Positions 2,783-63,977 of a stretch of 64,000 nucleotides of DNA are shown piece after piece. Source of the DNA: Candidatus Omnitrophota bacterium (GTDB lineage: Bacteria; Omnitrophota; Gorgyraeia; Gygaellales; Profunditerraquicolaceae). The DNA is taken from assembly GCA_028716965.1 (NCBI GenBank), contig JAQUOV010000004.1, positions 140,298 through 204,297 on the forward strand, read 5' to 3'. The translations under genes were made by a program, and so were the position numbers. Below the pieces are notes generated by a model, which saw nothing but the letters and a program-made list of their open reading frames with translations, made no database searches and had not been told where the DNA came from. The first letter of the stretch is position 1, and every line of letters begins with the position of its first letter.

Positions 2783-3844
2783 ATGAAAAAAGGGTATAAG
2801 TTTATCATCGCGCTGTTTGCAATATTATTGGTTTTATTTTTTGTTGCCAGCATCCTGGTCAGCCTTTATGCCCCCAGGATTGTTGAGGACCAGATCCGCC
2901 AGAGCCTGAAAGTTAAGGCCAGCCTCGGGAAAATAAGCTTAAGCCCGCCTTTTACTGTTACCCTGGAGAGTCTGGAGATCGGCACCCTGGCGAATATAAA
3001 GAAGGTATCTTTCTCCCCGAATTTGATCGCTTTATTATCCGGTAAGATAATTATCCACGGCTTAACCATCAGTGGATCGGTGATCAACCTTGAACGTTCG
3101 TCGGATGGCAAATTGAACCTGCCGGTCTTGGACAAAAAAGGCAAGCCGCCGGAAATCTATCCTGCCAGCCTTAGGGTGGTGGATGCCAAGATAATTTTCA
3201 CGGATAGAAAAGTAAGCGCCGCGGGCTACCAGATCATCGTTGATAAATTAAATATCAGTGTTGCCAGGGCTTCTCTGCCCCTGGCCTCCCTAGCTACGGA
3301 TTTCAACGTAAGCGCCCAGTTTTTAAGCCCTGCGGGGAAGGTTTTTGGCGGTATCACTTTCTCCGGCTGGCTGGATTATCTGGCAAAAGGTATGGATGCC
3401 AAATTAGAGGTCAATGACCTGGAGGTAACCAATTTTTCCCCTTACTACGGTAATTTTATCTCAAACAAAAAACTTCTCTCGGCAAGGCTTAATCTTAACT
3501 CGACCTTTAAGGCTAAAAATAATGCTTTGAATATTATCACGGATTTTAACCTTTCCAATCTCGTTTATGACCAAGATGAACTGCAGGCGCCGGTTCCGGA
3601 TTTAGCTAAAAACGCCCTTGACCTGTTTACTGATGCCGATGGTAATTTGCATTTAGTATTTAATATTGATACTAAGCTGGATGACCCGGCCTTAAGCCAG
3701 GATAAACTGAAAGAGATAATCCTGAAAGCGGCGATGAAGAACCTTGCCAGCCAGTCACCGGAGCAAATAGTTGATAAAGTCAGCAGCGTGATAGATAAGT
3801 TTAAGGGGTATAGTAAAGAGTTGAAGGAGATATTCGGGAAATAG
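2783..3844 (+). CDS. Membrane-anchored AsmA-like/DUF748-like envelope protein (hypothetical)
   Basis: 353 aa with a single N-terminal TM helix followed by a beta-rich periplasmic region. Weak resemblance to the AsmA family. Confidence 0.35.
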   Translation: MKKGYKFIIALFAILLVLFFVASILVSLYAPRIVEDQIRQSLKVKASLGKISLSPPFTVTLESLEIGTLANIKKVSFSPNLIALLSGKIIIHGLTISGSVINLERSSDGKLNLPVLDKKGKPPEIYPASLRVVDAKIIFTDRKVSAAGYQIIVDKLNISVARASLPLASLATDFNVSAQFLSPAGKVFGGITFSGWLDYLAKGMDAKLEVNDLEVTNFSPYYGNFISNKKLLSARLNLNSTFKAKNNALNIITDFNLSNLVYDQDELQAPVPDLAKNALDLFTDADGNLHLVFNIDTKLDDPALSQDKLKEIILKAAMKNLASQSPEQIVDKVSSVIDKFKGYSKELKEIFGK

Positions 3845-3887
3845 CCCCCGGGCTCTCCGGGATGAGCCGCAGGCGTTTTTCCCACAG

Positions 3888-4553
3888 GTGATAATCATGG
3901 ATGAAGCAAAATCAAAAACCTTGAGAAATATTGAAGAAAAAATGGAGGCCCTGGACAGCGGTTCTTTACGCTACCACATTTTAGAGAGCGCCAAGAACTT
4001 TAAGCGTTCATGGATAGAGTTGGGCCGGGCCCTTTATTCGGCATGGAAAGACAAGATGTATAAGGAGTGGGGGTATGTAAACTTTGATATCTATGTCAGC
4101 CGCGAGATAGGCATACGTAAACAGACGGCAATGAAGCTGCTCAAGTCGTATTATTTCCTGGAAAAAGAGGAGCCGCAATATTTAAAAAACGATTATGCGC
4201 AAAGCAGCCAGGCTGCCAATATCCCCAGCTATGAGTCAGTGGATATCCTGCGCCAGGCGAAGAATAAGAAGGCATTAGATGCGGATGATTATAATAACCT
4301 GAAAAAAGAGATTTTTGAAAAGGGCAGGGATGCCCAGGAACTGAAGAAAAGCCTGGGCGTAATCATCAGGCAGCGCCAGGAGCTGGATCCGGAGGAAGCG
4401 CAGGAGAAAAGAAGGCTGGCTATGTTAAGGAGGGTTCTGGGTCAGTTGCGTATGTTGAAACAGGAGGCGGAGGTTTTAAAAATGCTTCCTATGCCGTTAA
4501 TTAAAGAGTTGGATGCCTTGATAAAGAAGATTGATGCTGCGCTGGGAGCGTAA
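3888..4553 (+). CDS. Hypothetical cytoplasmic protein
   Basis: 221 aa ORF with coding-like composition. No recognisable motif. Confidence 0.4.
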   Translation: MIIMDEAKSKTLRNIEEKMEALDSGSLRYHILESAKNFKRSWIELGRALYSAWKDKMYKEWGYVNFDIYVSREIGIRKQTAMKLLKSYYFLEKEEPQYLKNDYAQSSQAANIPSYESVDILRQAKNKKALDADDYNNLKKEIFEKGRDAQELKKSLGVIIRQRQELDPEEAQEKRRLAMLRRVLGQLRMLKQEAEVLKMLPMPLIKELDALIKKIDAALGA

Positions 4554-5531: not shown

Positions 5532-7613
5532 ATGCAAAATAAAAGCTTGAAGATTAAATTTGGTAAAAATGACCTTATCCTGGAGACCGGCAGGATTGCT
5601 AAGCAGGCAAATGGTTCGGTCACCGTGACTTATGGCGCAACCGTGATTTTGGTTACTGCCTGTATGTCTAAGGATATAAGGGAAGGGCAGGATTTCTTTC
5701 CTTTGACGGTAGAATACCAGGAAAAGACCTATGCCGCAGGCAGGATCCCCGGCGGTTTCTTTAAGCGTGAAGGCAGGCCTTCAGAAAACGAAATCCTTGG
5801 CTCCCGTCTTATTGACCGGCCGATACGCCCGTTATTTCCCGAAGGGTTCTTGAATGAGGTCCAGGTCATGGCGATGGTCCTTTCAAGCGACGGTGAGAAT
5901 GACCCGAATATCCTGGCGTTGATCGGGGCAAGCGCAGCTTTATCCATTTCGGATATTCCTTTTAAAGGCCCTTTGGCAAGCTGCAGGGTAGCCAGGGTGG
6001 ACAACGAATTTATTTTGAATCCTACTTATGCCGAGCTTGAGAACGCGGACCTGGAGGTAGTGGTTGCCGGAAACAGCAATGGCGTAGTGATGCTTGAGTC
6101 AAAAGCCAAAGAGGTCTCCGAGGAGGTATATCTTGAGGCGGTGAAGTTTGGGATGGAGAGCCTTAAGCCTATACTCAGCATGCAGGAAGAGTTCTGCCGC
6201 CTTTATGGCGCAGAAAAGGCAAAGGTTGAACTTAAATTGATTGACCCGGCCTTAATGCAGAAGATTGAATCTCTTGCGCAGGAGAAACTAAATAAGGTAT
6301 ATAAATTAAGCAAGAAGGAAGAACGCGAAGAGGCAGTTGACCTGTTGACAAAAGAATTGGAATCGCAGTTAACTACTGAAGGTTTCCTTGCGGCGGATAT
6401 TTGTGCCGGGCTTCATGAAGTAGAGAAGAAGCAGGTACGCAAGATGATTGCCGATGAGAATATCCGTATTGATGGGCGTTCTTTCAAGGAGATCCGCCCG
6501 ATCAGCTGCGAAGTTTCTGTGCTTCCGCGTACGCACGGTTCAAGCCTTTTTACCCGCGGGCAGACCCAGAGTCTAGCCGTAACTACTTTAGGCACAGGCG
6601 AAGATGAGCAATTGATCGAGGCGCTTGATGGAGAGAGAAAGAAATCTTTTATGCTGCATTACAATTTCCCTTCTTTTAGCGTTGGAGAAACAAGGGCTAT
6701 ACGCGGACCCGGCAGGCGCGAGATAGGCCACGGGGCATTAGCGGAAAAGGCATTGCTTGCGGTAATGCCGCCGAAAGAGAAGTTCCCTTATACTATAAGA
6801 GTGGTTTCCGAGATTTTGGAATCCAACGGCTCAAGCAGTATGGCTTCGGTCTGCGCTGCTACCTTGTCATTAATGGATGCCGGCGTGCCGATTAAAGAAG
6901 CTGTAGGCGGGGTCGCCTTAGGTTTAGTGAAAGAGGGGAGCAAAACGGCAATCCTTACGGATATCGCCGGATTAGAGGACCATTTTGGAGATATGGATTT
7001 TAAGGTCGCCGGGACCCGCCAGGGTGTTACTGCCGTACAGCTGGATCTTAAGATAGACGGGATTAGTTTAGAACTGCTTAAGGATTGCCTTGCGCAGTCC
7101 AAGGAGTCAAGGTTTTTTATCCTGGATAAAATGAGTTCCGCGTTAAACAGCCCAAGAGAGGAACTTTCCAGTTTTGCCCCGCGCATAGATGTTTTAAAGA
7201 TCAATACCGAGAAGATCGGGGAACTGATCGGTCCGGGAGGAAAGACGATTAAGGCAATAATCGCCGCCACCGGCGCCAGTATTGATATAAAAGATGACGG
7301 TACAGTTTTGGTCGGCTCAACCGACGCGGGCAAATCCGATGCCGCCATTAAAATGATCAGAGCAATTACCGATGATGTGGAGGTAGGCCGGGTTTATTTC
7401 GGCAAGGTAAAACGCATTATGCCGTTCGGAGTCTTTGTAGAGATAGCCCCGCGTAAAGAAGGCCTAGTGCATGTTTCCGAGTTATCAAGTACTTTTGTGA
7501 AGAAAGTTGAAGACGTGGTAAAAGTCGGAGATGAATTTAAAGTCAAGGTTATCGGCATAGATGAGCTGGGCCGGATCAATTTAAGTAAAAAGCAGGCCGA
7601 GCAAAGCAGTTAA
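5532..7613 (+). CDS. pnp: Polyribonucleotide nucleotidyltransferase (PNPase)
   Basis: 693 aa with two RNase PH domains, KH and S1 domains. Follows rpsO in the classical rpsO-pnp synteny. Confidence 0.95.
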   Translation: MQNKSLKIKFGKNDLILETGRIAKQANGSVTVTYGATVILVTACMSKDIREGQDFFPLTVEYQEKTYAAGRIPGGFFKREGRPSENEILGSRLIDRPIRPLFPEGFLNEVQVMAMVLSSDGENDPNILALIGASAALSISDIPFKGPLASCRVARVDNEFILNPTYAELENADLEVVVAGNSNGVVMLESKAKEVSEEVYLEAVKFGMESLKPILSMQEEFCRLYGAEKAKVELKLIDPALMQKIESLAQEKLNKVYKLSKKEEREEAVDLLTKELESQLTTEGFLAADICAGLHEVEKKQVRKMIADENIRIDGRSFKEIRPISCEVSVLPRTHGSSLFTRGQTQSLAVTTLGTGEDEQLIEALDGERKKSFMLHYNFPSFSVGETRAIRGPGRREIGHGALAEKALLAVMPPKEKFPYTIRVVSEILESNGSSSMASVCAATLSLMDAGVPIKEAVGGVALGLVKEGSKTAILTDIAGLEDHFGDMDFKVAGTRQGVTAVQLDLKIDGISLELLKDCLAQSKESRFFILDKMSSALNSPREELSSFAPRIDVLKINTEKIGELIGPGGKTIKAIIAATGASIDIKDDGTVLVGSTDAGKSDAAIKMIRAITDDVEVGRVYFGKVKRIMPFGVFVEIAPRKEGLVHVSELSSTFVKKVEDVVKVGDEFKVKVIGIDELGRINLSKKQAEQSS

Positions 7614-7622
7614 TTTTAAGAA

Positions 7623-9812
7623 GTGAAAGAAAGAAGATTAAATGAGGTCAAAGGCGTTATTTTAATAGCGGTTGGGCTGATGGTTTTGGCCAGCCTCCTG
7701 CGCTTTGATCGTGCTGACCTCGTTTTTTTTACCTCGCACCCCAATTTTCCCCCTAAAAATCTGCTGGGAGTTTTCGGCGCCTATTTAGGCGGGTTTCTCG
7801 TATTCCTCTTCGGCAATATCTCAAGTTTTATTATCCCGTTTCTGGTCATTACCCTGGGTGTAAAGTATTTTCGTCAGGATAAGCCTTATCTTAGTATCCC
7901 GCGTATTATGGGGATGTTCGTATTGCTTATCTCCTTGAGTTCGCTTATCGGCATGTTTAATTTAAGCAACGATTTGTTAAGGTTTCATACCGCGGGGTTT
8001 TTGGGCGCGCTTACCTCCAACTTCATAACCGCATATTTCAGCCGTTTAGGCGGTTTTATTATTTTTATTACCTTTATTATCCTTTCCCTGGCCCTGGTTA
8101 CGGAAATCCTCATCTCTTCGCTTTTCTTGAAGACGCTTGAAAGATTAAAATCGTTTTTCTCGGGAATGTTCGATTTATCCAGCAGACAGAAGGCAACCTT
8201 GGTTAAGGTTAAGCAGAGCCTTTTGCATAAGAATAGCCTTTCCTCTAAGAAAGATGAGCAGCAGGCAGCTACTTCAAAACCAAAGATATTCATGCCTGAG
8301 GCCGCCGCCAGGCCGAAGATACAAATTAAATCCCGCCAGCAGGGAGAGGAAATAAAGATCAAGGCCAAGGAATTGAAGATCGGCGATTATCATCTGCCTT
8401 CCGTGGACCTGCTGGATGAAGCCCCTGAACCGGATACCAGGCAGATGAAGGAGGACCTTGAATCCAGCGCCAGGATCCTTGAGGATACATTGACAGATTT
8501 TGGGATCGCGGCCAAGGTCACGGATATTATCCGCGGCCCGGTAATTACGCGCTATGAACTTGAGCCTGCTCCCGGAGTAAAGATCAACCGTATCGAGGCT
8601 TTAAGCGATGATATCGCTTTGGCAATTAAAGCCCAGTCAGTAAGGATTATCGCGCCTATCCCGGGAAAAGGCCGGGTAGGGGTTGAGGTCCCTAATTTGC
8701 ACAGCGCTTTAGTGTGTATTAAAGACCTGCTCGTTTCTGCCGAATACCATAAACAAAAATCGTCTCTTACCCTGGCTTTAGGCAAGGATATTACCGGAAG
8801 GTCTGTCTTTGGCGACCTGGATGATATGCCGCACCTTTTGATTGCCGGCACTACCGGTTCCGGAAAGACTGTATGCGTGAATACCTGTATTTTATCTTTG
8901 CTTTTCAGGGGCTCGCCCAACGACCTGAAGTTTTTGATGATTGACCCGAAAATGGTGGAGCTGATGCCTTTTAACGGACTGCCGCATCTTTTGTGTCCGG
9001 TTGTTACCGACGCCAAGAAAGCGGCGGTTGCGCTTAATTGGGTAGTTGGACAAATGGAGGAGCGTTATCAGCTTTTGGCTAAGATAGGAGTGAGGAATAT
9101 CGAGGCCTATAATGAGAAACAACAAGAGAAGTTGCCTTATATCGTAGTGATAGTAGATGAATTCGCGGATCTGATGACCGTAGCGCGTGACCAGATTGAA
9201 AATGCGATTACCCGCCTGGCGCAGTTGTCGCGGGCGGTAGGCATACACCTGATTTTAGCCACGCAGCGGCCAAGCGTTGATGTAATTACCGGTGTAATTA
9301 AAGCGAACTTACCGGCGCGTATATCTTTTAAGGTCGCTTCTAAAGTTGATTCGCGCACGGTTTTGGATATGAATGGGGCGGAAACCTTATTAGGTAAAGG
9401 CGATATGCTATTCCTGCAACCCGGGAAAGAGGACCTTATCCGTATACAGGGGGCGCTGGTTAAAGACGGGGAGATTGAAAAGGTGGTAGAGTTTATCAAA
9501 GCGCAAGGGGAGCCGGCTTATAATGACCAGATCCTTAAGGAACAGCAAAAAAATAACTTGGCCGGAGGCGGGGAAAAAGATGAGCTTTATGACGAGGCGG
9601 TGCGCGTAATAATGGAAAGCAACCAGGCGTCGGTTTCCATATTGCAAAGGCGTATGCGTTTAGGCTATACGCGCGCTGCGCGTATTATAGATATAATGGA
9701 GATGGAAGGTTTGGTTGGCCCGTATGAGGGGAGTAAACCGCGCAGGATCCTGGTTGACCGCGAGGCGTGGCTTAAGGATTTGACAGGTCTTAAGGGGACA
9801 GAGAAAATATGA
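7623..9812 (+). CDS. ftsK: DNA translocase FtsK/SpoIIIE
   Basis: Several N-terminal TM helices, a linker, a Walker A motif (GTTGSGKT) and a C-terminal gamma domain. Confidence 0.9.
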   Translation: MKERRLNEVKGVILIAVGLMVLASLLRFDRADLVFFTSHPNFPPKNLLGVFGAYLGGFLVFLFGNISSFIIPFLVITLGVKYFRQDKPYLSIPRIMGMFVLLISLSSLIGMFNLSNDLLRFHTAGFLGALTSNFITAYFSRLGGFIIFITFIILSLALVTEILISSLFLKTLERLKSFFSGMFDLSSRQKATLVKVKQSLLHKNSLSSKKDEQQAATSKPKIFMPEAAARPKIQIKSRQQGEEIKIKAKELKIGDYHLPSVDLLDEAPEPDTRQMKEDLESSARILEDTLTDFGIAAKVTDIIRGPVITRYELEPAPGVKINRIEALSDDIALAIKAQSVRIIAPIPGKGRVGVEVPNLHSALVCIKDLLVSAEYHKQKSSLTLALGKDITGRSVFGDLDDMPHLLIAGTTGSGKTVCVNTCILSLLFRGSPNDLKFLMIDPKMVELMPFNGLPHLLCPVVTDAKKAAVALNWVVGQMEERYQLLAKIGVRNIEAYNEKQQEKLPYIVVIVDEFADLMTVARDQIENAITRLAQLSRAVGIHLILATQRPSVDVITGVIKANLPARISFKVASKVDSRTVLDMNGAETLLGKGDMLFLQPGKEDLIRIQGALVKDGEIEKVVEFIKAQGEPAYNDQILKEQQKNNLAGGGEKDELYDEAVRVIMESNQASVSILQRRMRLGYTRAARIIDIMEMEGLVGPYEGSKPRRILVDREAWLKDLTGLKGTEKI

Positions 9813-10642
9813 ACATTGAAACAGCCGGCACGCGGTTAAAGAAAATACGCCAGGAAAGAGGCTTAAGCCTGGAAGAGGTCCAGAAAAAGACCAAGATCCA
9901 TATTAATGTCTTGCGCGCCATTGAAGGCGACAGTATCTCTAATCTAAACCCGATTTATCTTAAGGGTTTCATTAAGATTTATTGTAACTACCTGGGCCTT
10001 GACCTTAAGGAGTACTTAGGTCAGGCCAGCCAGCCGCATAAACCGGTTTTGAATGCTGCCGTCGGCAGGGATATAGGTGAGCGTATTGAGAAAAAACCCG
10101 CCCTGGTAAAAGAGGTTTCAGTCAAGCTCAGCGCGTTCAGGCCTTCGCCGGGGCTTAAGAAAATAATCATATTTGCGTTAATCGGGATAGTTTTTATATT
10201 CTTAGTTGTCAAACTGACCAGGTTAATTTCCTCCTGGCATAAGAACGTATCACAAAAGGCCAGAGCCTCATCTGCTGTCAGGACCTCCAAGGTTAAGCGC
10301 GAACTCTTACCCAAAGAAGCGATAAATAAGTCTTCAGCAAAAAATATCCCCAAGCAGGACAAGGCGCAGAAGAATTTGTCCCAGGGTTTTATGCTCGGTG
10401 TCTTTGCCCGCGATAAATCCTGGGTTTCCGCCAAGGTGGACGGGAAACTTGTTTTTCACGGCATGCTTGAACGCGGCAGGTCTGAAACCTGGCAGGCCAA
10501 AGATAAAATCGAACTGTCCATCGGCGATGCCGGGGCCGTAGAATTGCAGGTTAATGACCAGCGTTTTACCAAGCTTGGGCGGCGCGGCCAGTCTTTAAAG
10601 AATATTGTCATTAATAGAGACGGCCTGAAGATAGCCCGATGA
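9809..10642 (+). CDS. rodZ: RodZ-like cytoskeleton protein (HTH-XRE, TM, C-terminal DUF4115)
   Basis: N-terminal HTH (LKKIRQERGLSLEEV), a single TM helix, and a C-terminal beta domain typical of RodZ. Confidence 0.65.
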   Translation: MNIETAGTRLKKIRQERGLSLEEVQKKTKIHINVLRAIEGDSISNLNPIYLKGFIKIYCNYLGLDLKEYLGQASQPHKPVLNAAVGRDIGERIEKKPALVKEVSVKLSAFRPSPGLKKIIIFALIGIVFIFLVVKLTRLISSWHKNVSQKARASSAVRTSKVKRELLPKEAINKSSAKNIPKQDKAQKNLSQGFMLGVFARDKSWVSAKVDGKLVFHGMLERGRSETWQAKDKIELSIGDAGAVELQVNDQRFTKLGRRGQSLKNIVINRDGLKIAR

Positions 10643-11886
10643 GGCATAAGCTGGGGATATTAACTTTAGGCTGTCCGAGAAACCTGGTGGATGCCGAAGC
10701 ACTGCTTGCCCGGCTTAAATCCAAAGGTTATTCCATAGTTGATGATATGGCCGAGGCCGAAACGGCCCTGGTAAATACCTGCGCTTTTATCGAAGAGGCA
10801 AAGCGCGAATCGGTTGACGCCATCCTGGATTTAATAGAGCTTAAAAAGAAGGGTAAGCTCAAGAAGATAATTGTTCATGGCTGCCTCTCCCAGCGTTACA
10901 GGGATTTAAGCAAAGAGCTTCCGGAGGTAGATGCCTTTGTAGGCTCGCTCGGGCTTAACCACGAATCAGGAAGGTTTGCTTTAACTCCTAAACACTACGC
11001 TTATTTAAAAATATGCGAAGGCTGCGTAAATAATTGCAGCTATTGTATTATTCCCAAGATTAAGGGTAAGCTAAAAAGCCTGGATGAGGGATCAATAATC
11101 CGGAGGGTAAAACGTTTTAACCGGGAGGGGATCTCCGAGCTTAATATTATCGGACAGGATATTACCGGCTTTGGCATGGATTCCTTGCCTAAAAGCCGCC
11201 TGGCCGGGCTGATAAGTAAAATTATCCGTAATGCGCCTGATATCGGATGGATCCGTCTTTTATATCTGAACCCTGAGCGCATATCCGATGAATTACTGGG
11301 GTTAATCAGGTCCCAGGAGCAGGTATGCAAGTATATTGATTTACCCGTGCAGCATATTAGTAACCGTATACTAAAACTAATGAACCGCCGGGTCACTAAA
11401 AAAGAGATAATCTCCCTGATTCATAAGATAAGGAAGGTTATCCCCGGAGTATCTTTGCGTACTTCGCTCATCGTAGGCTTTCCGTCAGAGTCGGATAAGG
11501 AGTTCAAGGAATTACTGAACTTTGTCAGAGAGGCAAGGTTTGAAAGATTGGGAGCTTTTATTTATTCCCGGGAAGAAGGTACTGCCGCTTATAGTTTTAA
11601 GGGGCAAATCAGCAAAGAAATCAAGCAACAAAGGTTTAACGCTGTTATGGCGGCACAGCAGATGGTATCTGCCGGTGTAAATGCCGGGTTTTTGGGCAAA
11701 AACATGCGCGTACTTATAGAGGAAAAACAGGATGGTGCTTATATCGGGCGCAGCCAGGCAGACGCCCCCGAGGTAGACGGCTTGGTTTATGTAAATTCCA
11801 AGCGCTTGCTTAAAATCGGGAAATTCACTGAGGTTAAAATAACCGACACCCTGGAGTATGACTTAGTGGGGGAGGCTGTAAATTGA
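10639..11886 (+). CDS. rimO: Ribosomal protein S12 methylthiotransferase RimO
   Basis: MTTase N-domain, radical SAM CxxxCxxC motif (CEGCVNNCSYC) and a C-terminal TRAM domain. Confidence 0.85.
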   Translation: MRHKLGILTLGCPRNLVDAEALLARLKSKGYSIVDDMAEAETALVNTCAFIEEAKRESVDAILDLIELKKKGKLKKIIVHGCLSQRYRDLSKELPEVDAFVGSLGLNHESGRFALTPKHYAYLKICEGCVNNCSYCIIPKIKGKLKSLDEGSIIRRVKRFNREGISELNIIGQDITGFGMDSLPKSRLAGLISKIIRNAPDIGWIRLLYLNPERISDELLGLIRSQEQVCKYIDLPVQHISNRILKLMNRRVTKKEIISLIHKIRKVIPGVSLRTSLIVGFPSESDKEFKELLNFVREARFERLGAFIYSREEGTAAYSFKGQISKEIKQQRFNAVMAAQQMVSAGVNAGFLGKNMRVLIEEKQDGAYIGRSQADAPEVDGLVYVNSKRLLKIGKFTEVKITDTLEYDLVGEAVN

Positions 11887-12519: not shown

Positions 12520-12980
12520 AGCTTGCCGCATTGTCTAATCTGCTGGTTAAGACAATCAGCACATTCTTTTTCGTCGGTTATCTGCCTTTGATCCCGGGGA
12601 CATTCGGCAGTATCGCGGGCATAGGCATATTTTACCTGTTTAACGGCAGAAGTTGGGCAGGTTATCTTTTATTGATCTTTTGCATAATGATCTTAGGGTT
12701 ATTAACCAGCGGCAGGGCGGAAAAGCTGCTGAACAGGAAGGATCCGGGTTGTATCGTGATTGATGAAGTAATGGGCATGCTTGTTGCCCTTAGTTTCCTG
12801 CCTCATGATCCAAAAATAATTATCCTGGCTTTCTTTATTTTCAGGATCCTTGATACGCTTAAGCCTTTTCCCGCTGGCAGGCTGCAGAATATGCACGGGG
12901 CAGTAGGGGTAATGGGCGATGACCTGGTTGCTGGCATCTATGCCAATATCGTGTTGCAGTTGATCTTAAGGTTAAGTTAA
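12486..12980 (+). CDS. pgpA: Phosphatidylglycerophosphatase A
   Basis: PGTFGS motif and membrane topology typical of PgpA. Follows pgsA. Confidence 0.8.
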   Translation: MGEPQDNYPSMKLAALSNLLVKTISTFFFVGYLPLIPGTFGSIAGIGIFYLFNGRSWAGYLLLIFCIMILGLLTSGRAEKLLNRKDPGCIVIDEVMGMLVALSFLPHDPKIIILAFFIFRILDTLKPFPAGRLQNMHGAVGVMGDDLVAGIYANIVLQLILRLS

Positions 12981-14053: not shown

Positions 14054-14065
14054 AATAACAATTAA

Positions 14066-14270
14066 TCTTTAGGGCAAGGTGACCTGCCTGACGGTAGGCA
14101 GGAATTCCTTACCGGCGGTGCAGCCCGCGAGCTGGCGCTTGGATTCTAGCGCCAGCAGATCCGGTGAGATTCCGGAGCCGATGGTGCCATGCGGATGGCC
14201 ACTGGCGCAATTCAAATTAACGCCAGGTGCGGTCTTCCGTATGTCGAAAGTCCAGATGGAAAAAGATTAA
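14066..14270 (+). ncRNA. FMN riboswitch (RFN element) aptamer
   Basis: Conserved RFN blocks: GGGCAAGGTGA...AATTCC..ACCGGCGGT..AGCCCGCGAGC...GGTGAGATTCCGGAGCCGATGGT...GAAAGTCCAGATGGAAAAAG. Lies immediately upstream of ribBA. Confidence 0.85.
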
Positions 14271-14280
14271 AATTAATACG

Positions 14281-19197: not shown

Positions 19198-19317
19198 ATT
19201 TAATTAGGTATTTTACGGCACCCCGCGCAGAACGGAATTGCGCGGGTGCCGTGCTTGTGCACGGGGCGTGGTCATCCCGCACAAACCATGCGGGATTTCG
19301 CCACGCAAGATGTAATA

Positions 19318-19392
19318 CGGGGCGTGGCTCAGTTTGGCTAGAGCGCAGCGTTCGGGACGCTGAGGTCACAGGTTCAAGTCCTGTCGCCCCGA
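19318..19392 (+). tRNA. tRNA-Pro (anticodon CGG), CCA not encoded
   Basis: Cloverleaf folded by hand: acceptor CGGGGCG/CGCCCCG, D-arm GCTC..GAGC, anticodon stem CAGCG/CGCTG with loop TTCGGGA, T-arm ACAGG-TTCAAGT-CCTGT, discriminator A. The 3' flank is ACA. Confidence 0.85.
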
Positions 19393-52198: not shown

Positions 52199-52495
52199 GG
52201 AGAGATATTTTACGTGGTTAAGCTTAAAATCCCCATAGCTACTCGTTTTGAATCAAAAATCATTTTTGTTCATTATCCTGCTTCGTAAACTCGGCAGGCC
52301 CTTGCATAGAACGCAAGGACTGCGTTCGATAAAAAATATAAGGTGCTTGATTTCGCGCAGCAAGCGCGCACTTGCCACTCCTGTTTGGCAAGGTGCGCTA
52401 AATTGTTATGGGTGCTCAATTTTTTGCTTGCTTTTTACGTAACCAATGTTATAGTAAAGGTTAACGAATACGCGTAAAATCATAAAGGAGGTAAG

Positions 52496-54663: not shown

Positions 54664-54692
54664 TTGACAAGGGGTTTAAACTCTGTTAAAAT
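54664..54692 (+). promoter_or_regulatory. Promoter upstream of mreB (TTGACA-17-TAAAAT)
   Basis: TTGACA at 54664-54669, TAAAAT at 54687-54692. Confidence 0.6.
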
Positions 54693-54723: not shown

Positions 54724-55797
54724 ATGGTAAAATTCAGCCAACAGCTAAAGAGAACGGTAAATTTTGTCTTGGGCCTTTTTTCCAATGATATGGGGATTGA
54801 CCTTGGGACAGCTACGACCCTGGTTTTTGTTAAAGGGGAAGGGGTAGTCCTTTGTGAACCTTCGGTTGTAGCAATTGAACGCGGGACTTCACATGTGCTG
54901 GCCGTAGGAGAAGAGGCTAAGCGCATGCTTGGCCGGACTCCCGGCAATATCATCGCCATTAGGCCGATGAAAGACGGGGTTATCTCTGATTTTGAAATTA
55001 CCGAAGCCATGCTTCGTTATTTTATCAAGAAGGTACACCACCGCAGGGTTTTAGTAAGGCCCAGGATCGTTATCGCAATCCCCTCAGGGATAACGGAGGT
55101 AGAGAAGCGGGCGGTAAAAGATTCTGCTGAACGCGCCGGAGCAAGAGAGGTATTCCTGATTGAAGAGCCGATTGCCGCAGCTATAGGCGTAGGGCTGCCT
55201 ATCCAGGAGCCGGTCGGAAATATGATTATTGATATAGGAGGCGGGACTACGGAGATAGCGGTAATCTCGCTTGCGGGGACAGTTTTTTCAAAATCCATCC
55301 GCATCGGCGGAGATGAAATGAATGAAGCGATCATTGAATACCTAAGGAAGACATACAACCTTTTGGTCGGCGAACGCACCGCCGAAGATATTAAGATAAA
55401 GATCGGCTCGGCTTATCCGATGGAAGAAGAGATGAGCATGGAGGTCAAGGGCAGGGACCTTGTGGCAGGATTACCGAAGATCGTTACTATTACCAGTGAA
55501 GAGGTCCGTGAATCCCTGCAGGAGCCTCTGCGCGCCATAGTAGAGGTTACTAAAATATCGTTGGAGAGGACCCCCCCGGAGTTAGCCGCTGATCTTATTG
55601 AGCATGGGATTGTGATGGCAGGCGGCGGTTCATTATTGAGAGGGTTGGATAAATTGATCTCTGAAGAGACCGGTTTGCCTGTTCATATCACTGATGATCC
55701 GGTTACTGCGGTTGCTAACGGTACCGGCCGGGTGCTTAGCGAAATTCAATATCTTAAGAAGGTAACTGTTTCGGTGAAGACCGAAACACGCAGCTAA
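54724..55797 (+). CDS. mreB: Rod shape-determining protein MreB
   Basis: [22 protein letters not shown]-terminus and actin-like fold. Confidence 0.95.
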
Positions 55798-55802
55798 TTT
55801 CC

Positions 55803-55990
55803 GCCACCAGGCGGATACCGACGCAATACCATTAAGCGTCGGGTATAAGCCACCAGGCGGACACCGACGCAATTCCGTTAAGCGTCGGGTGTAAGCCACC
55901 AGGCGGACACCGACGCAATATTCGCCACGAGGCGAACACTTGCGCAATACAAATAAGCGCAAGGCGCCAATTAGCGCCAGGTGCAGAGCC
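55803..55990. repeat. Tandem 46-bp hairpin repeat array (2.5 units) plus palindromic hairpin elements
   Basis: Units at 55803-55848, 55849-55894 and a partial third at 55895-55920. Each contains CCGCC..GGCGG and CCGACGC..GCGTCGG hairpins. Further hairpins follow, including CACTTGCGC-loop-GCGCAAGG. Confidence 0.8.
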
Positions 55991-56011
55991 AATCATTCTT
56001 CCTAGCTAAAT

Positions 56012-56785
56012 GTGTTTAAGTTATCCCGCAAAACCATAATCAATCTAATCATTGTTGTCTGCACAGCGCTTTTGGTTTATATATCCTCCCCTTTTCTAAA
56101 AAATTCAACCCAGAAAACGTTTAATCCCCATCTTGGCTTGATCGGTTTACTCAAACGTGAATGCTCAGGAATTATCTTCTACCACCGCAATATGGTTAAG
56201 CTTGAGAGGTTAAGCAGCGAAGCGGAAAACCTGCGCCGGAGGTTGTTTGACCTGCGGGAGATTGAGCAGGAGAACTTACGGCTTAAGAGTATCCTTAATT
56301 TCAAACAGAGATCGCCCCTGCGGATTATCCCGGCCAGGGTGATTGCCCGTTCTCCCGACAGCTGGTCTTCCAGCGTGATTATTGATAAGGGCAGAGATAG
56401 CGGCATAAGGACAGGCATGGCGGTGATTAATACGCAAGGGTTGGTGGGCAGGGTAATAGAAAGCTCCGGCAGTAACAGCAAGATATTATTGATCAACGAC
56501 CCTAGCCAGGGGGTATCCAGTATTGTGCAGCGCACACGCCAGGAGGGGTTGGCCAGCGGCAGCCTGGGAGCAAATTTAATTATGCGTTATCTTCCGGCTG
56601 ATGCGCAGATTGCGGTGGGGGATATAATCATTACCTCGGAATTAAGCCGGGTTTACCCGAAAGGCCTGCTTGTGGGTACGGTGGTCAATATAGGAAAAGA
56701 ATTTTCCGGCCTTAGCTGTTACGCCGTGGTTAAGCCCGCGGTTAAGCTTTCCGATATTGAAGAGGTGTTGGTGATTATCCCATGA
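56012..56785 (+). CDS. mreC: Rod shape-determining protein MreC
   Basis: GTG start, N-terminal TM helix, coiled coil and a beta domain. Sits downstream of mreB. Confidence 0.8.
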   Translation: MFKLSRKTIINLIIVVCTALLVYISSPFLKNSTQKTFNPHLGLIGLLKRECSGIIFYHRNMVKLERLSSEAENLRRRLFDLREIEQENLRLKSILNFKQRSPLRIIPARVIARSPDSWSSSVIIDKGRDSGIRTGMAVINTQGLVGRVIESSGSNSKILLINDPSQGVSSIVQRTRQEGLASGSLGANLIMRYLPADAQIAVGDIIITSELSRVYPKGLLVGTVVNIGKEFSGLSCYAVVKPAVKLSDIEEVLVIIP

Positions 56786-63488: not shown

Positions 63489-63571
63489 ATCAGCAGGCAA
63501 TTCAGGCCTTAAAGGCCTGTAAAGTTAACAACTTAAGGTTTAAGCAGAATATAAATATTCTAAAAAAACCC

Positions 63572-63599
63572 TTGACAAAATGTAGTTTTGTAATAGAAT
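63572..63599 (+). promoter_or_regulatory. Candidate promoter with A-rich UP element (TTGACA-16-TAGAAT)
   Basis: aaaaaaaccc-TTGACA at 63572-63577, TAGAAT at 63594-63599. Upstream of the rRNA leader. Confidence 0.45.
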
Positions 63600-63708
63600 A
63601 ACGTTTCCCTTCCAAAAGGGGCAAATTATTGTGAAAATAATTAAGACGCTGTTGACAATTTCCGGCAACTAACCACTATACGACAAATAGGGCGTAAAGA
63701 TAAATTTT

Positions 63709-63742
63709 GCGCCCCGACAGTTTGTCGGGGCGTATTTTTTTT
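63709..63742 (+). terminator. Intrinsic terminator
   Basis: GCGCCCCGACA-GTTT-GTCGGGGCG stem-loop followed by TATTTTTTTT. Confidence 0.7.
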
Positions 63743-63807
63743 GCCGCAGAAGCGGCACACTGGCGCAATTTCCAGTAGCGCCAGGTGGGAGCATAGATTT
63801 GGATCAC

Positions 63808-63823
63808 TGCTCTTTTGATAATT
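63808..63823 (+). promoter_or_regulatory. boxA-like antitermination element in the rRNA leader
   Basis: TGCTCTTTTGATAATT resembles the rrn boxA consensus TGCTCTTTAACAATTTA. Confidence 0.4.
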
Positions 63824-63977
63824 GAATTGCCAAGCGAGGCCAAGGTAATTCGCCGTAGAGGCGGCGCACTTGCGCAAATCAAATTAGCGCAAGGTGCGTT
63901 AAAGATTACTAAGGTCAATTTCATGAGGTTAGAAATTAAATAAATCACTAGAGCCTTCATACAAATTTCTCAAATTT

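Follow-up and report, generated by a model that had tools for sequence, protein, structure and literature searches.

We find that the 214-bp spacer separating mreB from mreC (55798-56011) in a 64,000-nt stretch of DNA from a Candidatus Omnitrophota bacterium, the whole of which is referred to here as the window, is probably a pile-up of a dispersed two-hairpin module resembling the repetitive extragenic palindromic (REP) sequences, tolerated and possibly co-opted, and not a dedicated regulator of mreBCD. The cluster consists of two complete tandem copies, one copy that carries a nested copy of another stem subtype in the loop of its second hairpin, and a decayed remnant. The module belongs to a multi-copy family with a conserved two-hairpin architecture. 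Related genomes differ, by gain or loss, in which orthologous sites carry a copy, and copies sit in the loops of other hairpins, including those of other modules and of a riboswitch stem.

A nested cluster between mreB and mreC

The module measures about 49 nt and forms two adjoining hairpins: H1, with a GC-rich stem of 5-6 bp and a 4-nt loop, and H2, with a lower stem of 3 bp, a bulged G on the 3' side, an upper stem of 7 bp and an 11-nt loop reading AATTCCNATWA. A hairpin scan of the window showed the H1+H2 design at other places too, and copies were scored with a covariance model, R1, built from seven of them. On the plus strand, the first unit (55800-55848; 67.8 bits, E = 6e-14) begins 2 nt past the stop codon of mreB and is a complete module, with H1 at 55800-55815 (TCCGCC acca GGCGGA) and H2 at 55815-55846 (ATA-CCGACGC-aataccattaa-GCGTCGG-G-TAT). 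The second (55849-55894, +; 50.0 bits) is a tandem copy with 91% identity to the first; its H1 is reduced to 3 bp, and the lower stem of its H2 reads ACA/TGT where unit 1 has ATA/TAT, a compensatory change. The third, or outer, unit (55895-55920, +) holds H1 and the 5' half of H2 (ACACCGACGCAATA), and its H2 loop is interrupted by a nested inner module, unit 4 (55921-55969, +; 61.7 bits), with H1 TTCGCC acga GGCGAA and H2 CTTGCGC-aatacaaataa-GCGCAAG, which replaces the CCGACGC/GCGTCGG upper stem; this subtype is common to unit 4 and the copy at 63851-63899. Behind unit 4, a remnant hairpin, GGCGC caatta GCGCC followed by AGGTGC (55964-55985, +), was delimited from the sequence and its alignment with L003, L002 and L142 (L numbers denote related genomes and metagenome contigs); it is a decayed 3' half of H2 (..TTAGCGCCAGGTG; ..TTAGCGCCAGGTGC) and matches the CTGGCGC subtype at 63742. 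An A/T-rich tail without structure (55986-56011, +), kept in relatives and devoid of a Shine-Dalgarno (SD) sequence, ends in AAAT before the GTG start of mreC.

The tandem 46-bp array that a sequence-only reading had described between the two genes is borne out: Tandem Repeats Finder returns an array at 55803-55920 with a period of 46, 2.6 copies, 93% matches and a score of 208, three occurrences of the 22-nt unit head in the window compare with 0 expected from 100 shuffles, and a gapless repeat search picks up the diverged fourth copy at 55924-55969. The anatomy proposed in that reading needs amendment. It had given each unit two hairpins, the first of which, a 5-bp CCGCC/GGCGG stem, exists in unit 1 only, while units 2 and 3 have AAGCC as 5' arm, with 3 bp pairable; the second is present, but its description left out the 3-bp lower stem and the bulged G. 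The last half unit is indeed partial, but it is interrupted by unit 4 and not merely truncated. The CACTTGCGC family, of which a member had been noted downstream, is real and represents one stem subtype of the two-hairpin module, with a second copy at 63851-63899. As a whole the spacer folds at -91.9 kcal/mol, with z = -7.2 on the plus and z = -4.7 on the minus strand relative to shuffled sequence. A CRISPR array was dropped as a reading, the units standing head-to-tail with no spacers between them; attC sites and self-cleaving ribozymes were dropped on anatomy alone.

That mreB and mreC are normally adjacent, as had been assumed, holds in the phylum: in eight more distant Omnitrophota relatives the spacer measures 9-20 bp, in all of them ending in AAAT immediately before GTGTTTAAG. 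Length and module number vary among related genomes, from these 9-20 bp up to 214 bp in the window, with module-free spacers of 20-62 bp in L016, L069, L004 and L013, and spacers of 107 bp in L005, 118 bp in L003, 157 bp in L001 and 168 bp in L002. L001-L003 are the nearest species-level genomes, syntenic with the window and about 79% identical to it in nucleotide sequence over the region. On top of the interrupted outer copy, the window has two full tandem units, L001 and L002 have one, and L003 has none, so that L003, like the metagenome contig L142, consists of the interrupted outer and the nested inner copy only. The half-unit junction, at the end of GCAAT, is common to the window, L001, L002, L003 and L142. 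In L142 the outer H2 stem, CTGACGC...GCGTCAG, is intact and perfectly complementary around the inner copy, which shows the 'half unit' to be one module with a second lodged in its H2 loop. At the same locus, L098 has an inverted nested copy. Homologous arrays occupy the mreB-mreC site in L001, L002, L003, L005, L098 and L142, and the first hairpin adjoins the stop codon of mreB in six related genomes.

These arrays also bear on the question of whether the tandem copies could be an assembly artefact, from collapsed or duplicated reads, which we consider extremely improbable. The 2.6-copy figure does come from assembled sequence and not from reads, and the one contig of the source genome in the collection searched (1.7 kb) misses the spacer. 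Yet the independent assemblies just named carry homologous arrays with differing but coherent copy numbers and a shared half-unit junction, the differences between units are compensatory substitutions and not errors, similar arrays exist in L022 and L180, and the 118-bp array is shorter than the 150 nt typical of an Illumina read, should that platform have been used.

Two further observations concern the locus in individual relatives. Between window positions 55800-55875 and L001 positions 3491-3566, 75 of 76 nt are identical and the stem of the nested unit is wholly different, which points to mosaic conservation or recent exchange. L022 holds, at 7110-7230 and 11075-11185, two copies of a palindromic element of about 110 nt with TCAAATGAAGCC...GGCTGAATTTGA ends, one of them lying in its own 215-bp mreB-mreC spacer; the apex of the element holds a reverse H1+H2 module, which suggests composite elements built around the module.

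A multi-copy family with conserved two-hairpin architecture

The alignment underlying R1 has 95% of its cells paired and double-sided changes in 9 of its 15 pairs. Searching the window with the model yields eight copies at five loci, about one copy per 8 kb, three of them full units in the mreB-mreC spacer. We call 'H1-first' the strand that reads H1 and then H2, as the spacer copies do with respect to mreBCD, and 'H2-first' its opposite; relative to local transcription, seven of the eight window copies are H1-first. Two copies lie in the leader of the 16S rRNA gene, one (63742-63790, +; 60.2 bits) directly 3' of a terminator-like hairpin with a T-run and ahead of a boxA-like TGCTCTTTTGATAA, the other (63851-63899, +; 59.0 bits) within the loop of a pre-existing hairpin that reads GTAATTCC..GGRRTTAC in relatives. 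The leader of tRNA-Pro (19318-19392, +) contains the sole window copy that is H2-first, or 'sense', relative to its downstream gene (19216-19264, -; 62.1 bits), with orthologous copies in L090 and L187. An H2-containing hairpin sits in the P6 loop of a flavin mononucleotide (FMN) riboswitch (14185-14232, +; 31.8 bits), and a weak, diverged copy lies past the gene of a pseudouridine synthase, ahead of the promoter belonging to the following gene (52354-52398, +; 20.6 bits, E = 0.006). No module of the window or of nine module-rich loci matched Rfam (release 15) at gathering score, and the spacer, compared with Rfam at E-values up to 10, gave noise only (E no better than 0.77, scores up to 15 bits).

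A degenerate H2 pattern that specified neither stem complementarity nor H1 matched at least 120 metagenome contigs; all metagenome counts given here and below are among the matches listed. Free stem triplets are perfectly complementary in 126 of 134 H2 pattern matches, and H1 stands directly upstream of H2 in 136 of 162 (84%). Applied to 100 of the loci, R1 finds 138 copies; these are 95.9% paired and show double-sided changes in 14 of 15 pairs, values of which both controls fall far short. The sequences of H1 fall into discrete recurring types and form no continuum. Stem pairs comprise 1809 Watson-Crick, 14 G.U and 53 A.C pairs (40 of the latter at one outermost pair), which puts wobble at about 1% on either strand, and a test for strand asymmetry of wobble, as would separate RNA from DNA, found none apart from one outermost pair; the scarcity of wobble lends weak support to copying at the DNA level. 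The discrete H1 types, the nesting and inversion of copies, their position in loops of unrelated hairpins and their patchy occurrence in close relatives speak for it as well. Where their genes overlap the window or the MreB loci, the contigs resemble Omnitrophota, some with 65-99% amino-acid identity to the window. One match in a viral contig was discarded as chance, since it falls within high-GC coding sequence, lacks an H1 and has non-complementary stems.

Orthologous sites are found both filled and empty. At site 1 of the 16S rRNA leader the window, L001 and L140 carry a module and L002 does not; site 2 is occupied in the window alone, the host hairpin being intact and empty in L001 and L002; and the site at 52.35 kb, again filled in the window only, lacks a module in L002 and L003. 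Window positions 8.4-22.6 kb have their syntenic counterpart in L187. The FMN riboswitch of the window (14064-14272, +), upstream of ribBA, scores 54.2 bits, below the Rfam gathering score of 66.2, and its ortholog in L187 scores 114.8 bits; the former has a 20-nt hairpin in its P2 loop and a 60-nt H2-containing hairpin in its P6 loop (~14182-14247), and L187 is without both. The Rfam alignment had placed the copy at 14185 in the expression platform or P1, an assignment that we rejected, since comparison with L187 puts it in the P6 loop; the true P1 of the window riboswitch is UUAAUCUUU/AAAGAUUAA. Two window genes (7623-9812 and 9809-10642) overlap by 4 nt, and their counterparts in L187 lie about 125 nt apart (12590-12720), across a spacer made up of two sense-oriented modules and a canonical AAGGAGAG Shine-Dalgarno; module and SD may travel together, or the window may have lost the spacer. 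With filters off, no module was detected in 84 kb of L004, L013, L016 and L069, whose MreB is 91-94% identical. One copy is nested inside another in L142, L088, L091, L120 and L098, tandem arrays recur in a 5' untranslated region (UTR) of L180 (period 47, 3.6 copies) and in L022 (period 45, 4.0 copies), and inverted doublets or clusters are present in L101, L133, L135 and L098. Of the options that the sequence-only reading had offered for the spacer, mobile repeat insertion is thus well supported, by a dispersed family, by filled and empty orthologous sites, by nesting and by tandem arrays at unrelated loci.

The leader and promoter regions that hold copies have features of their own. In the 16S rRNA leader (63560-63830, +), two TTGACA-type promoters are followed by a hairpin with T8 (63708-63740) and then by the boxA-like TGCTCTTTTGATAA, and this terminator-like signal within an rRNA leader is kept in L001 and L002. 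Positions 1-190 of L001 carry about 5 copies of an unrelated tandem repeat of ~31 nt (AAAGTGCTGCGCTATACAAAAACTAC...) directly upstream of a -35 box; the repeat precedes the ortholog of window gene 52496, and the same promoter-proximal spot holds the module in the window.

Placement, orientation and spread

Metagenome copies are mostly H2-first, the opposite of those in the mreB-mreC spacer. On the H2-first strand, 61 of 132 non-redundant copies (46%) have an SD-like tetramer that begins between -3 and +2 nt from where H1 ends, 57 of these with a start codon at the right distance, as against only 2 of 132 on the other side of the module. By crude gene calls, 84 copies have their H1 side towards the 5' end of a gene and 18 towards a 3' end; within co-directional gene pairs the two placements number 61 and 13, convergent intergenic regions account for three copies (3/84), and 122 of 136 copies lie outside the open reading frames (ORFs) called. 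The downstream genes are diverse, and by eye their N-terminal translations resemble, among others, DnaK, ClpB, Pgk, ArgH, CarB, several ribosomal proteins, HU and SOD. Ten copies precede tRNAs, some adjoining the mature 5' end, and many span the entire gap from an upstream stop codon to a downstream SD. A second recurrent context, seen for instance at window position 63742, is a terminator-like hairpin with a T-run followed immediately by an H1-first module. Of 131 copies, 12 have a promoter-like site at a distance of 2-22 nt upstream. In most copies the H2 loop reads GGA (or GGU) on the H2-first strand; 28 of 116 loops, with A at position 6, have no GGA.

We propose that the family would spread by copying and insertion on DNA hairpins, in the manner of REP elements and HUH transposases, and that local slippage may have yielded the 46-bp tandem copies in the spacer. 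Several findings weigh against reading the spacer as the product of such insertions. Filled compared with empty sites (both 16S rRNA leader sites, the 52.35-kb site and the riboswitch) show no target-site duplication and no terminal inverted repeats, in which the module also differs from miniature inverted-repeat transposable elements, and we infer the polarity of the events, insertion versus deletion, from few genomes. No mobilising enzyme was found by tblastn of incomplete genomes with IS200 TnpA and REP-associated tyrosine transposase (RAYT) sequences as queries, one Y1_Tnp gene in L158 being all that was seen. Unit 1 of the window is identical to unit 1 of L001 at 49 of 49 positions, whereas third-codon positions of mreB are only 67% identical, which argues for constraint or recent exchange at the mreB-mreC site. 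The positions of the H2 loop that the search left unconstrained are conserved (C5 in 98%, T9 in 92%). Finally, selfish spread accounts for the strongly non-random placement and orientation of the copies no better than a selected function of the RNA does. The Y1_Tnp gene of L158 (L158:3792-4466; IS200-like, 224 aa, Pfam E = 3.6e-15) is itself flanked by a different short palindrome (AATAGGGGACAGCGCCCTATT, region 3620-4520), and transposase and palindrome together look like a separate REP/RAYT-type system in a module-bearing contig.

An alternative explanation, which we judge possible though on balance unlikely, is that the module is mainly a functional RNA, an H2-first cassette of 5' UTRs and intercistronic regions set against an SD sequence or the 5' end of a tRNA. 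Such a cassette may be recognised by a trans-acting factor, or may provide 5' stabilisation or a site of processing; a candidate mechanism is that a CsrA-type protein binds GGA both in the H2 loop and in the SD, and the reverse-oriented copies between mreB and mreC may be by-products or 3'-end protectors. Adjacency to SD sequences, the diversity of the downstream genes, the copies before tRNAs and those filling the gap from stop codon to SD, a conserved loop with GGA on the sense strand, the promoter-like sites, the orthology of the tRNA-Pro leader copy in the window, L090 and L187, and a unit 1 equal to that of L001, although synonymous sites of mreB are saturated, all speak for an RNA cassette. 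However, the window copies, array included, have the other orientation in all but one case, copies are lodged in a riboswitch loop and in one another or follow terminators, very close relatives are module-free over the same 21 kb, G.U pairs are nearly absent, and GGA is missing from part of the loops. No CsrA gene was found by tblastn in 2 Mb of fragments, a result that is uninformative given fragmentary data. A bolder version, which we hold to be rather doubtful, would have the module as a lineage-wide portable RNA cassette (H2'-H1'-SD) standing before perhaps hundreds of mRNAs and tRNAs and spreading by loop-targeted insertion, with the reverse arrays as 3' protectors or decoys. If true, the cassette would be read by a dedicated factor or would serve as a standard 5'-end or processing signal, its insertion mechanism would be one undescribed for other repeat families, and the reverse arrays, as decoys, would be complementary to the sense loops.

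The mreBCD operon and known repeat systems

We return to the preferred reading of the array as an insertion cluster and not a dedicated regulator, which we adopt because the modules are dispersed, because they are gained and lost, and because effects on the operon would be secondary. The cluster is flanked by mreB (54724-55797, +; stop codon TAA at 55795-55797; Pfam MreB_Mbl, E = 1.8e-149), whose product is 97-98% identical in amino-acid sequence to that of Omnitrophota metagenome-assembled genomes and assigns the window to this phylum, and by mreC (56012-56785, +; Pfam MreC, E = 5.8e-45), which, as had been pointed out, starts with GTG directly after the spacer, at 56012; ORFs for MreD, PBP2 and RodA were also identified by Pfam in this gene set. 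A promoter-like site upstream of mreB (54664-54692, +; TTGACA-17-TAAAAT, TG-extended, 11 of 12 consensus matches) presumably drives mreBCD, and the spacer would be co-transcribed with the operon on the plus strand, its modules in the minority H1-first orientation. Because 214 structured nucleotides replace the short spacers of relatives, termination-reinitiation coupling between the mreB stop and the mreC start would have to be lost, as a secondary effect. Hairpins 2 nt past the stop codon could shield the 3' end of mreB from exonucleases, as REP sequences do in E. coli, so that by analogy a stabilising role is possible, and they could also interfere with terminating ribosomes. In no relative does the GTG start of mreC have a recognisable Shine-Dalgarno, and its context of AAAT followed by GTGTTTAAG is kept across Omnitrophota.

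Attenuation, which the sequence-only reading had also considered, fares poorly. That an attenuator or partial terminator specific to this operon arose in situ to lower mreCD expression relative to mreB is, in our estimate, very improbable, even if the position suits differential expression of MreB versus MreC and MreD, the structure of the spacer is as strong as its z-score indicates, and the first hairpin stands against the mreB stop codon in those six related genomes. The plus strand of the spacer (55798-56011) has no promoter-like site and no hairpin with a T-run, although the genome does possess canonical terminators of that kind (63708-63740); the family of which the units are members is spread genome-wide over unrelated contexts; short module-free spacers suffice in relatives whose MreB is 91-94% identical; and copy number varies among the closest genomes.

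In E. coli, the intercistronic REP of malE-malF reportedly stabilises mRNA 3' ends, work attributed to Newbury and colleagues in 1987. The mreB-mreC array resembles it in placing stable hairpins between cistrons, directly after an upstream gene that is needed in greater abundance, and any like function would be by analogy. Mycobacterial interspersed repetitive units (MIRU), said to have been described by Supply and colleagues in 1997, contain small ORFs that overlap the stop and start codons on either side, and hairpins are not known to define them. The array shares with them direct tandem repeats of 40-100 bp, an intercistronic position in operons and a copy number that is variable between strains, but the module consists of two hairpins and follows no ORF logic. 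In cyanobacteria and Rickettsia, respectively, small dispersed repeats and palindromic elements are tiny repeats that enter one another and structured RNA genes or loops without destroying them. The module likewise inserts into other modules and into the loops of structured RNAs, while sequences, hosts and architecture differ; neither of these families is known to be associated with SD sequences. A likeness to CsrA/RsmA and CsrB/RsmZ lies in the GGA loop of H2-first copies, about 25-30 nt upstream of an AAGGAGG SD, and in tandem arrays (L180), but GGA is absent from about a quarter of the loops and the mreB-mreC array shows the UCC orientation.

Closest are the REP sequences, together with REP doublets forming hairpins (REPINs) and bacterial interspersed mosaic elements (BIMEs). 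Like these, the module has GC-rich imperfect palindromes with a bulge, is extragenic and present in high copy number, and is probably transcribed with flanking genes; it also falls into discrete subtypes and occurs in clusters, inverted doublets and tandem arrays (PMC3116915 for REP). The first copy in the spacer, 2 nt after a stop codon, is placed like the REPs between unidirectional genes (PMC3733652). REPs, which are thought to be mobilised by RAYTs, are located between unidirectional and convergent genes, mainly downstream of ORFs (PMC3733652), whereas most modules stand upstream of genes against an SD, with 3 of 84 convergent. Further, a REP is a single palindrome of 20-40 bp and the module two distinct hairpins in 49 nt with a conserved H2 loop, the host phylum is Omnitrophota, and we found no cognate RAYT in the incomplete genomes searched, the only Y1_Tnp seen (L158) being flanked by another repeat. 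The unpaired terminal GTAG/CGTC tag of REPs (PMC3733652) is missing, and the module ends, CA-C.../...G-GTG, pair with each other. Read on the H2-first strand, 65% of copies in the 138-copy alignment have GT at the end of the H1 loop, and in 42% (56/132) GT[AG]G, the signature tetranucleotide of REPs, lies across the junction of that loop with its 3' arm, a structural position unlike that in REPs.

What, then, does the family mean for its hosts? Omnitrophota are uncultivated, and the control of their gene expression is almost unknown. A REP-like two-hairpin repeat of this phylum that abuts SD sequences and enters hairpin loops has no match in Rfam, and nothing relevant came from searches of the literature on Omnitrophota repeats and on small dispersed repeats of cyanobacteria. 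Members of the family lengthen operon spacers and occupy rRNA and tRNA leaders, and in this way shape intergenic architecture; the module within the FMN riboswitch pushes that riboswitch under the Rfam detection threshold. For annotation, recognition of the family accounts for many 'odd structured spacers' in these genomes at once. Its tight and oriented association with SD sequences is unusual for REP-like elements, and by it the module qualifies as a candidate post-transcriptional signal of a general kind, or else as a repeat whose target preference is out of the ordinary.

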